From the IMG/VR virus record IMGVR_UViG_2651869694_000011: a DNA stretch of 17,082 nucleotides. One strand, given 5' to 3'. Of the stretch, positions 10,588 to 13,387 are shown one piece after another. How positions within the stretch are numbered: position 1 is the first letter of the stretch; each line of letters opens with the position of its first letter. Made by a program: the position numbers and the translations under genes. The notes beneath the pieces were generated by a model. That model was given only the letters and a program-made list of their open reading frames with translations, had not been told where the DNA came from and did not search any database. The DNA is from a virus. Taxonomy: Duplodnaviria > Heunggongvirae > Uroviricota > Caudoviricetes.

Positions 10588-10713
10588 AGGCTATAAACCA
10601 ACAACTAAACACTGAAAATTTAAATCAGAAATGATTTTTATTAAATCCTTAACCGGAGGGATTCCTGCACCCTCAGAACATCAGGAGACCGCCCGAAAGG
10701 GCGGTAGTGAAAA

Positions 10714-11277
10714 ATGACTGAATTAACCAAAGAATGGCTACAGAACACGATTACCGGAATTGAGTCATCACGGGATGAAATACCGTTCGGACTCGATGAA
10801 GATCAAAACAACATGCTTACCGCATTAAAAATTGCACTGGCATCACTGGCATCAGTATCGGATGAACGGGCAGCCTATGAATTATTTATGGAGAAGCGTT
10901 TCGGGGAATCTGTAGATCGCCGCAGAGCAAAAAATGGCGATAGAGAATACATGGCATGGGATATGGCGCTTGGCTGGATTATCTGGTGTCACCGCGCCGC
11001 CATGCTTCAGGCTGGAAACTTTCGGGAAAATAAGGGTTCGTCAACCAATAATTTTCGGATAATCTCGGAAACGTCAACCAACTCTCCGGCAATCCCTGAT
11101 GAGGTGTTGTCCGCAATCCTGAAGGTCGCCAGGCTTCGTGCAGATTTCGATGCTTCTGAAGTGGACAGGCGAGGTATCGGTAGTTGTCTGGATGAGGCCG
11201 AGCAAGAACTTATCGTTACCATTAACGAATACGCCAGTCAGATCGCAGTAGAAGCGACACAGGGGGAGAACCAATGA
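10714..11277 (+). CDS. Hypothetical protein (187 aa)
   Basis: Long ORF with no competing frame. Preceded by a perfect 7-bp hairpin with GAAA loop (10688-10705) between an AGGAG motif and the ATG. Confidence 0.65.
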   Translation: MTELTKEWLQNTITGIESSRDEIPFGLDEDQNNMLTALKIALASLASVSDERAAYELFMEKRFGESVDRRRAKNGDREYMAWDMALGWIIWCHRAAMLQAGNFRENKGSSTNNFRIISETSTNSPAIPDEVLSAILKVARLRADFDASEVDRRGIGSCLDEAEQELIVTINEYASQIAVEATQGENQ

Positions 11278-11386
11278 GCCGGCCAGATGCATTTGCAGGC
11301 GTTGCTATAGCTATTGCTTTTCTAGTATATGTTATTTGTCGGTGGGGGTAAAAACGTTCGCCGGGATTCACACCAAGGGAGGGAAT

Positions 11387-11491
11387 ATGTCGGATGATAT
11401 TTCACTGGTAATGGAAGGCGCTCTGGCTGTTATTGCTGTTGTGGGTGTTTACTGCCTGGTTGTGTTTTTGATGGAGCGCCTGGGGAACTGA
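11387..11491 (+). CDS. Candidate small hydrophobic protein (34 aa, single predicted transmembrane helix)
   Basis: Not in the ORF track (too short). Strong SD AAGGGAGGG 3-5 nt before the ATG at 11387. Translation MSDDISLVMEGALAVIAVVGVYCLVVFLMERLGN. Candidate promoter upstream (-35 TTGCTA 11302-11307, -10 TATATG 11326-11331). Confidence 0.45.
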   Translation: MSDDISLVMEGALAVIAVVGVYCLVVFLMERLGN

Positions 11492-11531
11492 ATTCATTCC
11501 GTATGGGAATTCCCATATCGGGCAAAACGGT

Positions 11532-11559
11532 TTGCTGTAAAGCGAGAGTTAAGTAGAAT
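11532..11559 (+). promoter_or_regulatory. Candidate sigma70 promoter for the hok mRNA
   Basis: -35 TTGCTG (11532-11537), 16-bp spacer, -10 TAGAAT (11554-11559). The predicted transcript 5' end (~11563-11577) is complementary to the 3' UTR at 11940-11955. Confidence 0.4.
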
Positions 11560-11734
11560 TGCTGCGGGTGCTTGAGGCTGTCTGCCTCGGGCATGCCACC
11601 GTAAGGCAGACAGAGAAAAGCCCCAGTTAACATTACGCGTCCTGCAAGACGCTTAACATTAATCTGAGGCCCAATCTATGCTTCACAAACGTAGGTTAGC
11701 CTCTTACGCGCCGAAAGGCAAGGAGAAGCAGGTT

Positions 11735-11890
11735 ATGAAGCAGCAAAAGGCGATGTTAATCGCCCTGATCGTCATCTGTTTAACCGTCATAGTGACGGCA
11801 CTGGTAACGAGGAAAGACCTCTGCGAGGTACGAATCCGAACCGGCCAGACGGAGGTCGCTGTCTTCACAGCTTACGAACCTGAGGAGTAA
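11735..11890 (+). CDS. hokD: Hok/Gef family type I toxin (HokD/RelF-like, 51 aa)
   Basis: MKQQKAMLIALIVICLTVIVTALVTRKDLCEVRIRTGQTEVAVFTAYEPEE matches the Hok family and E. coli HokD as recalled. SD AAGGAGAAG 9 nt upstream. Track ORF 11678..11890 is an in-frame upstream extension. Confidence 0.9.
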   Translation: MKQQKAMLIALIVICLTVIVTALVTRKDLCEVRIRTGQTEVAVFTAYEPEE

Positions 11891-11958
11891 GAGACCAGGC
11901 GGGGGAGAAATCCCTCGCCACCGCTGATGTGTCAGGCATCCTCAACGCACCCGCACTT

Positions 11959-11985
11959 AACCCGCTTCGGCGGGTTTTGTTTTTT
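11959..11985 (+). terminator. Rho-independent terminator of the hok transcript
   Basis: Hairpin cccgc-ttcg-gcggg (11961-11974) followed by ttttgtttttt. Confidence 0.75.
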
Positions 11986-12057
11986 CTGGTCGTTCTGGTT
12001 TACAATCCATCCGTCAGCCTGAACAACTGGCACCTGCTGCGCCAGCAGAGAAAACAG

Positions 12058-12336
12058 ATGGCGCACGATACCAAATTTTACAATTCGGATAACTCTGCCG
12101 CCCCTGCCAGCAGGCACGGGCGGCGTTCTCATGCATTCAAATCTGACTGGTATCAGCACGACCCCTGCACCGAAGAACAGGCTGAATGGCTGATTCAGTA
12201 TTACCGCAGGCGCGGATACGAGGTTAAGAAAGCCCTCAGTCTCGATTATCGTCACTGGATAATCTCCGTCAGGCTTCCTTACTCCGAACGCCCACCGCGT
12301 CCGTCCCGCACATTCCAGCAACGCATCTGGAGGTAA
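12058..12336 (+). CDS. Hypothetical basic protein (92 aa)
   Basis: ATG at 12058 is the first start downstream of the hok terminator within track ORF 11929..12336. Weak RBS. The stop lies 2 nt before the DUF968 start. In Qin the gene between hokD and ydfU is rem, but identity is unverified. Confidence 0.45.
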   Translation: MAHDTKFYNSDNSAAPASRHGRRSHAFKSDWYQHDPCTEEQAEWLIQYYRRRGYEVKKALSLDYRHWIISVRLPYSERPPRPSRTFQQRIWR

Positions 12337-12337
12337 C

Positions 12338-13387
12338 GTGCGGGTATTACTTCGACCTGTTCTGGTACCGGAACTCGGGCTGGTGATCGTTAAGCCGGGC
12401 CGTGAATCCATGCCGGTATTCCACAATACCCGGGTACTGGTGGAGCCGGAACCGAAAAGCATGCGTAATCTGCCGTCCGGGGTCGTTCCTGCCGTTCGCC
12501 AGCCGCTGGCGGAGGATAAATCATTACTGCCATTTTTCAGCGACGAACGAGTGATTCGTGCTGCTGGTGGCGCTGGCGCATTGTCTGACTGGTTACTGCG
12601 CCATGTTAAATCCTGCCAGTGGCCACACGGCGATTATCACCACAGTGAAACCGTCATTCACCGTTATGGTACCGGCGCAATGGTGTTGTGCTGGCACTGC
12701 GACAACCAGTTGCGTGACCAGACCTCCGAATCACTTGAGCAACTTGCTCACCAAAACTTGTCAGCATGGATGATTGACGTCATTCGTCACGCAATGAATG
12801 GCACACAGGAGCGTGAATTATCGCTGGCTGAATTATCCTGGTGGGCGGCCTGCAATCAGGTGGTGGATGCACTACCTGAGGCAGTAGCGCGTCGTTCGCT
12901 GGGATTACCAGCGGAAAAAATCCGCTCCGTATACCGTGAGAGTGACATCGTACCGGGAGAACAGACAGCCATCAGCATACTGAAGCAGCGCACAAAAAAT
13001 ATTGCGCTGCCACTTCACGTCCACCAGCAACAAAATCCACCACAGAAAAAAACGGTTGTCAGTATCGCCGTTGATCCGGAGTCTCCTGAATCGTTCATGA
13101 GGCGGCCTAAACGTTGCCGTTGGGTTAATGAGAAATACACACGCTGGGTAAAGACACAGCCGTGTGCGTGTTGTGGTAAGCCAGCGGACGATCCTCATCA
13201 TCTGATTGGTCATGGTCAGGGCGGAATGGGAACAAAATCCCACGATATTTTCACGCTACCGCTGTGTCGGGAGCATCACAACGAGCTTCATGCGGATCCG
13301 CTGGCGTTCGAAGAAAAGCATGGTTCCCAGGTTGATTTAATTTTTCGTTTTCTTGATCACGCCTTTGCGACTGGCGTGCTCGGGTAA
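12338..13387 (+). CDS. DUF968 family protein with a C-terminal HNH-like motif (YdfU / phage P1 Ref-like putative nuclease)
   Basis: 349-aa ORF, GTG start with GGAGG 4 nt upstream. C-terminal motif QPCACCGKPADDPHHLIGHGQGGMGTKSHDIFTLPLCREHHNELH is characteristic of DUF968/Ref-type HNH proteins. Confidence 0.85.
   Translation: MRVLLRPVLVPELGLVIVKPGRESMPVFHNTRVLVEPEPKSMRNLPSGVVPAVRQPLAEDKSLLPFFSDERVIRAAGGAGALSDWLLRHVKSCQWPHGDYHHSETVIHRYGTGAMVLCWHCDNQLRDQTSESLEQLAHQNLSAWMIDVIRHAMNGTQERELSLAELSWWAACNQVVDALPEAVARRSLGLPAEKIRSVYRESDIVPGEQTAISILKQRTKNIALPLHVHQQQNPPQKKTVVSIAVDPESPESFMRRPKRCRWVNEKYTRWVKTQPCACCGKPADDPHHLIGHGQGGMGTKSHDIFTLPLCREHHNELHADPLAFEEKHGSQVDLIFRFLDHAFATGVLG

Follow-up and report, generated by a model that had tools for sequence, protein, structure and literature searches.

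A 34-amino-acid open reading frame just upstream of the hok promoter in a lambdoid prophage, here called ORF-B, is a genuine protein-coding gene under purifying selection on its peptide. We consider it probable that ORF-B encodes a single-pass inner-membrane micropeptide and forms the first cistron of an extended prophage-type hok/sok moron. The gene is already known to databases as a hypothetical protein; what is new is its strict tie to prophage hok cassettes, a widespread 30-aa form that bears no annotation in the records inspected, and a relic on the Shigella plasmid pINV.

Results

Genomic context

The window, by which we mean the whole 17,082-nt stretch of DNA that was analysed (IMG/VR record IMGVR_UViG_2651869694_000011, Caudoviricetes), belongs to a lambdoid prophage of STEC-type E. 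coli and is its early-right (nin) region. Over 751 nt around ORF-B, many chromosomes of O157:H7 and other STEC match it at 100% identity, and the gene order given by RefSeq runs through repressor, cro, O/P-like replication genes, several hypothetical genes, ORF-B, hokD, a DUF968 gene, rusA, Q and tRNAs. The features around ORF-B are the following.

11274-11351, plus strand: ORF-A, a 25-aa hydrophobic ORF absent from the RefSeq annotation, whose start overlaps the stop of a 187-aa gene (ATGA)
11376-11384, plus strand: Shine-Dalgarno (SD) region AAGGGAGGG of ORF-B, with the core GGAGG at 11378-11382
11387-11491, plus strand: ORF-B, gene for a 34-aa predicted single-pass membrane peptide, WP_001278460.1 (direct reading and RefSeq)
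11499-11522, no strand assigned: palindrome with a perfect core of 16 bp at 11502-11517 and, around it, an imperfect hairpin of 24 bp that has one bulge (sequence reading and folding)
11532-11559, plus strand: hok promoter, -35 TTGCTG (11532-11537), 16-nt spacer, -10 TAGAAT (11554-11559)
11566-11740, plus strand: hok mRNA leader / sok region (Rfam RF01794, 114.9 bits, E = 5.6e-27)
11678-11890, plus strand: mok (70 aa), with hok (51 aa) nested from 11735 (ORF list; RefSeq annotates hokD)
11959-11986, plus strand: intrinsic terminator after hok

ORF-B had been placed just upstream of the hok promoter by an earlier, sequence-only reading of the locus, and this is indeed where it lies: ORF-B and the palindrome are directly followed by the TTGCTG/TAGAAT promoter, which ends 7 nt before the Rfam leader match begins. 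The promoter scan did not flag the promoter of the window, which was identified by eye on reading the sequence, but it did flag the homologous promoter in mEp460 (TTGGCG-17-TAGAAT) and likewise in pWR100, where the spacer is 18 nt. ORF-B itself falls outside the hok/sok cassette proper, as it ends at 11491, while the DNA homology to hokW of 933W starts near 11524 and the Rfam match at 11566. A terminator scan of positions 10700-12400 found none between ORF-B and hok; the site after hok was the sole terminator-like one in that interval and is thus the first terminator downstream of ORF-B. Rfam also gave a sub-threshold isrK match (27.2 bits against a gathering score of 50) on the plus strand at 11899-11980, over the 3' end of hok and its terminator, which is probably just terminator similarity.

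The peptide and its start site

Direct reading bears out a 34-aa ORF on the plus strand, with its ATG at 11387, a TGA at 11489-11491 and the peptide MSDDISLVMEGALAVIAVVGVYCLVVFLMERLGN. The description of this ORF as unannotated was mistaken, since RefSeq lists exactly ORF-B as WP_001278460.1, hypothetical protein; the exact peptide occurs on at least 1000 contigs and is held in UniProt as A0A0K4ZJX7, an uncharacterised protein. The ribosome-binding site is as strong as had been proposed, with a GGAGG core 4 nt before the ATG and an anti-SD duplex of -11.8 kcal/mol, an energy that ranks in the top 1.3% among the window's 307 plus-strand ATGs. The SD is kept as AAAGGAGGG in other alleles of ORF-B, and the 30-aa forms carry AGGAGG (mEp460/Tritos/pINV) or a weaker GGAG (locus L090) 4-6 nt before their GTG or ATG start. 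Structure in the SD/start region was not significant (folding z -0.9 and +0.15).

One transmembrane helix is predicted, in agreement with the earlier reading: the Kyte-Doolittle 19-residue maximum is 2.72 (residues 11-29), well over the usual transmembrane threshold. The 34-aa form carries a net charge of -3, the 30-aa form one of 0. Sequence searches against Pfam, PHROGs, NCBIfam, PADLOC and PDB returned no match above noise, and ORF-B gave no profile match to the Hok/Gef family (PF01848).

Family and distribution

An exhaustive HMMER search covering 1.84 billion representative proteins yielded only 14 clusters for the ORF-B family. It occurs in two forms, one of 34 aa (MSDDISL...) and one of roughly 30 aa (for example MLAALKGFVAILAVVAIYCLVVVLMDRLSD), with about 50% identity between them, and all copies that we traced are in E. 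coli or Shigella, whether on chromosomes, in prophages, in phages or on plasmids. The 34-aa form is present in 732 of 5426 complete E. coli genomes (13%) and the 30-aa form in 1973 of the same 5426 (36%); among the matches listed for the latter, none of 30 records carries any annotation at the matching position.

An intact 30-aa copy with its SD is also present on 141 Shigella/EIEC pINV plasmids, beside a decayed, truncated hok leader and just upstream of icsP. In pWR100 of Shigella flexneri M90T (L091, 2499-2591), and likewise in 140 other pINV-type plasmids, the homologue is intact and unannotated; it reads MLVLKGTLAIAAVMTIYCLIVVLMERFSD and has an AGGAGG SD, and the hok promoter and leader that come after it are decayed and truncated, with icsP about 290 nt downstream. 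A 1-nt deletion in S. dysenteriae pSLG231 changes the C-terminus of the 30-aa homologue. The other plasmid matches in tblastn were three E. coli plasmids at 85-100% and one weak match in Burkholderia, so few that R1/F-type plasmid hok loci appear, from these searches, to lack ORF-B.

Selection and translation

Reading frame, length and stop position are maintained in homologues of about 50% identity, and the SD is strong in all of them except L090. We calculated dN/dS by the Nei-Gojobori method in the ORF-B frame and in the five other frames. Ratios in the ORF-B frame were 0.12-0.21 when 34-aa alleles were compared with one another, 0.16-0.36 for 30-aa alleles and 0.35-0.5 for one form against the other, whereas the other five frames gave ratios of about 0.5-1.3, or held stop codons where the ratio was low. 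The synonymous excess is significant even in single pairs (Fisher p ~0.001), and the 10 variable sites among mEp460/Tritos-like alleles comprise six synonymous third positions and four nonsynonymous changes (A/T, I/V, M/T, C/Y). Seven residues (A, V, Y-C-L, L and R) are invariant across nine aligned homologues, the R within a (D/E)-R-x-(S/G)-(D/N) tail. The conservation and synonymous-site analysis that had been suggested as a check thus came out in favour of the ORF, with a conserved frame and purifying selection in that frame only.

A paralogue of ORF-B has been reported as translated. XECs145 of E. coli O157:H7 Sakai was described as a 'novel small gene' (Hücker et al., 2017, PLoS One, PMC5597208), with an RNA RPKM of 79.1, a ribosome-footprint RPKM of 346.1, a ribosome coverage value (RCV) of 4.35 and a coverage of 0.99 in LB (S2 Table of PMC5597208), and an RNA RPKM of 121.3, a footprint RPKM of 150.1 and an RCV of 1.14 in BHI (PMC5597208). 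RNA and footprints were both present in uninduced EHEC cultures. XECs145 (...MSDDISLAMEGALAVIAVVGVYCLVVFLMDRLGN) carries the 34-aa core of ORF-B with two substitutions, V8A and E30D; it belongs to the same family, lies in a similar prophage and was predicted to be an inner-membrane protein, but its ORF was called from a start further upstream, at 54 aa, and it is a copy other than the window's. Since the footprints come from a paralogue, in a genome with several near-identical copies, they are supporting evidence and not proof for the exact copy of the window. Our literature search (accession, peptide strings, hok-upstream ORFs) found XECs145 as the sole description of the ORF-B family, and that report, which treats it in ribosome-profiling and prediction tables only, mentions neither the link to hok nor the 30-aa form nor the pINV copy (PMC5597208). 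Taken with the frame and SD kept at about 50% identity and the low dN/dS, the footprints on the paralogue uphold the earlier suggestion of a membrane-peptide gene.

Linkage to hok

Every copy of ORF-B examined lies directly 5' of a prophage-type hok promoter (decayed on pINV) and in the same orientation. Where there was enough downstream sequence to judge, the hok leader followed in 75/75 loci with the 34-aa form, the hok start lying 243-246 nt after the ORF-B stop, and in 74/74 loci with the 30-aa form, hok lying about 211 nt downstream; hok was broken by an insertion sequence (IS) in two of the former and four of the latter. The outer flanks differ considerably. The window has the 187-aa gene and ORF-A upstream and rem/DUF968 downstream; L090 has an ORF6N gene upstream and methyltransferases downstream with the ORF-B-hok arrangement unchanged; mEp460 has a divergent 449-aa gene upstream of ORF-B and Tritos has ImmA downstream; and in L094 the arrangement is found in a defective chromosomal prophage. 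Such a constant 5' position, across diverged lineages with differing outer flanks, speaks for membership of the proposed extended hok moron.

The reverse does not hold, as hok cassettes lacking ORF-B are common, including hokW of 933W. Nor did we find any covariation of Hok with the type of ORF-B, Hok being essentially identical beside either type or beside none, and DNA identity between the types is about 60% across ORF-B versus >90% across hok. That Hok is the same whatever lies upstream points to a recombination boundary between the two genes, and on these comparisons ORF-B and hok are linked by position without co-evolving. In six IMG/VR prophages (L011, L050, L099, L128, L138 and L147) two different ISs sit exactly at the SD/start codon of hok with ORF-B and the hok leader intact, which resembles the IS inactivation known from chromosomal hok loci.

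The promoter scan found no convincing promoter for the 34-aa form. The 30-aa form of the mEp460/Tritos/pINV lineage has a weak conserved candidate, TTGA(A/G)T-17-CATATT (8/12), which the scan did not flag; the upstream region that holds it is missing from L090. A promoter-like site on the minus strand, TTTACC-17-TATACT (9/12), runs from 11352 to 11324 inside ORF-A and points away from ORF-B.

ORF-A and the in-frame fusions

ORF-A (MSRPDAFAGVAIAIAFLVYVICRWG) is hydrophobic and conserved, with homologues in 99 phage records that follow the pattern M-x-W-P-E-A-F-A...V-Y-x-I-C-R-W and often stand behind Ea22/EaA/DUF551-type genes, far from hok. In 933W it directly precedes the hokW promoter, ORF-B being absent. 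ORF-A is probably a second real micropeptide gene, and it belongs to the upstream module and not to ORF-B. Three database proteins (P0005, P0008 and P0009) are nonetheless in-frame fusions of the two, and either one more G in TGGGGGTAA or tRNA-Gly slipping by -1 on the G run before the ORF-A stop would give exactly that product, so that ORF-B might supply the C-terminal half of a two-helix protein of 74 aa, whose halves a frameshift has separated or programmed slippage unites. We find this hardly credible. The split G5 state is found in 80/80 IMG/VR loci; the divergent allele L086 has the ORF-A stop in frame with ORF-B, so that no frameshift can join them; ORF-A is wholly missing from loci of the 30-aa type and occurs without ORF-B in 933W and at other positions in many phages; and the fusions are on 1-2 contigs each, for which homopolymer errors are the simplest account. 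A single 74-aa gene was rejected on these grounds.

In the commonest allele a direct repeat, GGGTAAAAACG, flanks ORF-B and the palindrome together (about 165 bp; in the window 11343-11351 versus 11520-11530), and in 933W (L084) ORF-A is joined straight to TAAAAACGGTTTGCGG and the hok promoter. Compared with 933W, the segment looks like an insertion or deletion between short repeats. The repeat is lost in the divergent L086, and we treat it as a possible recombination joint only, having set aside its reading as an insertion footprint.

The palindrome downstream of ORF-B

The palindrome is perfect over 16 bp, as had been described (TATGGGAATTCCCATA, 11502-11517), and is separated from the stop codon by 10 nt where 11 had been counted. 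By chance, 17 kb of sequence should contain about 0.26 perfect 16-bp palindromes, so that one of this length is weak evidence by itself, but the element is real, because other alleles carry perfect versions of 22 bp (the commonest allele), 24 bp (PPompW phages) and 26 bp (L194). One base is gone from the left arm in the window's allele, so that only the 16-bp core is perfect and the hairpin (-12.8 kcal/mol, z -3.1) is bulged; across alleles the hairpin energies range from -12.8 to -17.9 kcal/mol. In the L086, L077 and L070 variants the palindrome is degenerate, its symmetry broken without compensation, and it is absent from all loci of the 30-aa type and from 933W.

The earlier proposal of a protein-binding site or a hairpin holds up as far as the hairpin goes, which can form at the energies given. 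An operator of fixed geometry is unlikely, as anywhere between about 14 and about 40 nt separate the palindrome from the hok -35, and a repeated operator was rejected since the palindrome is single in the window, with no second copy even when three mismatches are allowed. We also considered an intrinsic terminator, with which the palindrome shares a stable stem-loop; CGGGCAAAACGG comes after the hairpin, which has no U-tract and escaped the terminator scan, so the palindrome is not a canonical terminator. It may act as an RNA hairpin that limits or processes read-through. The palindrome and hok promoter are found in three left contexts, after ORF-B, after paa/adfO without ORF-B and after another gene. 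As hok with the palindrome but without ORF-B and hok with ORF-B but without the palindrome both occur, the palindrome is not part of ORF-B, and from its distribution we read it as a left-edge element or mosaic joint of one hok-cassette subtype.

The exact 16-mer TATGGGAATTCCCATA was also seen in at least 43 distinct contexts away from hok (IMG/VR loci L176-L294, for example L241 4377-5181, L189 and L227), many of them ORFs with a KilA-N-type motif, two of which were confirmed against Pfam PF04383. There the 16-mer encodes (D/V/N)MGIPI(S/T/L), and the palindrome extends by at least 2 bp per side in 32/43 of the non-hok contexts (about 6% expected by chance) through reverse-complement pairs of flanking codons (GAT/ATC, GTT/AAC, AAT/ATT), which looks as if selection or a mutation bias favoured palindromy within a coding motif. 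An identical 16-24-mer (coding for DMGIPIS) thus lies inside the KilA-N domain genes of many phages, where it is coding, whereas at the hok locus it is non-coding and sits at a mosaic boundary. Its presence in KilA-N genes of unrelated phages means that the sequence is not unique to the hok locus.

Discussion

Small single-helix membrane peptides had been put forward in the sequence-only reading as typical type I toxins or membrane-targeting phage factors; for ORF-B the gene for such a peptide beside hok stands, and the type I toxin is not supported. As a toxin, ORF-B would be a second depolarising peptide beside hok, checked by an antisense or divergent sRNA. It resembles the type I toxins (Hok/Gef PF01848, Ldr, TisB, ZorO, ShoB), which are peptides of about 30-50 aa with one hydrophobic helix found on mobile elements, and here it directly adjoins the classical type I system hok/sok; many small transmembrane peptides, moreover, are toxic on overproduction. 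Yet consensus scans found no minus-strand promoter-like sites inside or just after ORF-B in the window, mEp460 or pWR100, Rfam gives no match over ORF-B and no conserved complementary segment for a divergent or trans-acting sRNA was found, so that the antisense transcript proposed as a check did not materialise in these sequence scans. There is no sequence match to the known toxins either (Pfam, NCBIfam and PADLOC), the SD is strong and exposed instead of being sequestered in structure, the peptide is acidic or neutral where type I toxins are mostly cationic, and the paralogue is translated in exponentially growing, uninduced cells with an RCV of 4.35 (PMC5597208). The absence of an sRNA and its promoter, the unstructured start, the charge and the heavy ribosome occupancy together make a poor fit to a tightly silenced toxin. 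By our own estimate it is quite unlikely that ORF-B is itself a toxin, and the scheme of a second depolarising peptide under RNA control fares no better. Another way to account for the conservation would be that ORF-B is non-functional, its DNA or RNA being kept as an upstream regulatory part of the hok promoter and the open frame being incidental. The last 25 or so nt of the ORF are indeed highly conserved as DNA in loci of the 30-aa type, at about -40 to -70 from the hok transcription start. This we regard as very improbable, given that substitutions pile up at synonymous sites in the ORF-B frame only, that SD and start codon are conserved across deep divergence and that footprints cover 99% of the paralogue (PMC5597208).

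A further question is whether the peptide has anything to do with Hok. It may be a membrane factor of the phage or lysogen unrelated to hok, which modulates a host membrane protein or serves superinfection exclusion, the adjacency being no more than inherited gene order. ORF-B is intact where hok has been destroyed (on pINV and where an IS disrupts hok), Hok does not covary with ORF-B type, and a recombination boundary separates ORF-B (about 60% DNA identity) from hok (>90%). Hok cassettes also work without ORF-B, as hokW-sokW of 933W/Sp5 does (PMC8621323), and since such loci are both common and functional, a specific partnership with Hok is not required and the adjacency could be inherited synteny. 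Against this, about 150 loci and 141 plasmids yielded not one copy that lacks a neighbouring hok leader, despite their differing outer flanks, and the apparent lack of ORF-B at R1/F-type plasmid hok loci means that it tracks one hok lineage specifically. We rate this alternative as unlikely, though well above those considered so far. Our preferred account of ORF-B as first cistron of an extended hok moron has its own difficulty, in that the two types of ORF-B differ by about 50% beside a nearly invariant Hok. Asked separately about the role of the peptide, we would put independence from hok at only a little under an even chance, and a role tied to hok as a tentative but distinctly possible one.

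On the account of ORF-B as a micropeptide gene at the head of a hok moron, transcripts of the 34-aa form would arise by read-through from upstream nin genes, and those of the 30-aa form in the mEp460/Tritos/pINV lineage from the weak TTGA(A/G)T-17-CATATT promoter; both would continue into the hok leader and stop at the hok terminator (11959-11986). The peptide is predicted to enter the inner membrane through its conserved A-x3-V-x3-Y-C-L helix together with the (D/E)-R-x-(S/G)-(D/N) tail. There it may bind and modulate a membrane partner, possibly Hok or a host protein, as other bacterial small membrane proteins do, and would not be a stand-alone toxin. The palindrome downstream would be a separate element, either a left-edge hairpin or a mosaic joint of its cassette subtype. 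ORF-B is akin in build to characterised single-pass inner-membrane proteins of enterobacteria such as MgrB, AcrZ and MgtS and to phage morons expressed in the lysogen, with its 30-34 aa, one helix and short polar ends. It may be moron-like also in being expressed without prophage induction (as judged from the paralogue), and it lies between conserved phage genes, beside a cassette with its own promoter and terminator. It differs from both groups in having no sequence relationship to them, in using the hok terminator and not one of its own, and in its very narrow distribution.

Since the 1980s the hok/sok locus has been the textbook case of type I toxin-antitoxin, and it is usually drawn with hok, mok and sok only. 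A bolder proposal, which we hold to be doubtful, is that ORF-B is a third, protein-level part of prophage hok/sok, either modulating Hok, for example as a co-factor, as an inhibitor or via the invariant transmembrane Tyr-Cys, or acting through its translation or read-through to tune the hok promoter and leader. If this were true, a two-part type I system would have a conserved three-gene form in many E. coli genomes, with a relic on the Shigella virulence plasmid; if instead the peptide is unrelated to Hok, it would be one more uncharacterised phage micropeptide.

In summary, prophage copies of hok can have a translated, selectively maintained micropeptide gene set directly against their promoter, which offers a lead for the small-protein and toxin-antitoxin fields. 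Our analysis also flags a small gene that has been consistently missed, including an intact copy upstream of icsP on the Shigella pINV plasmid.
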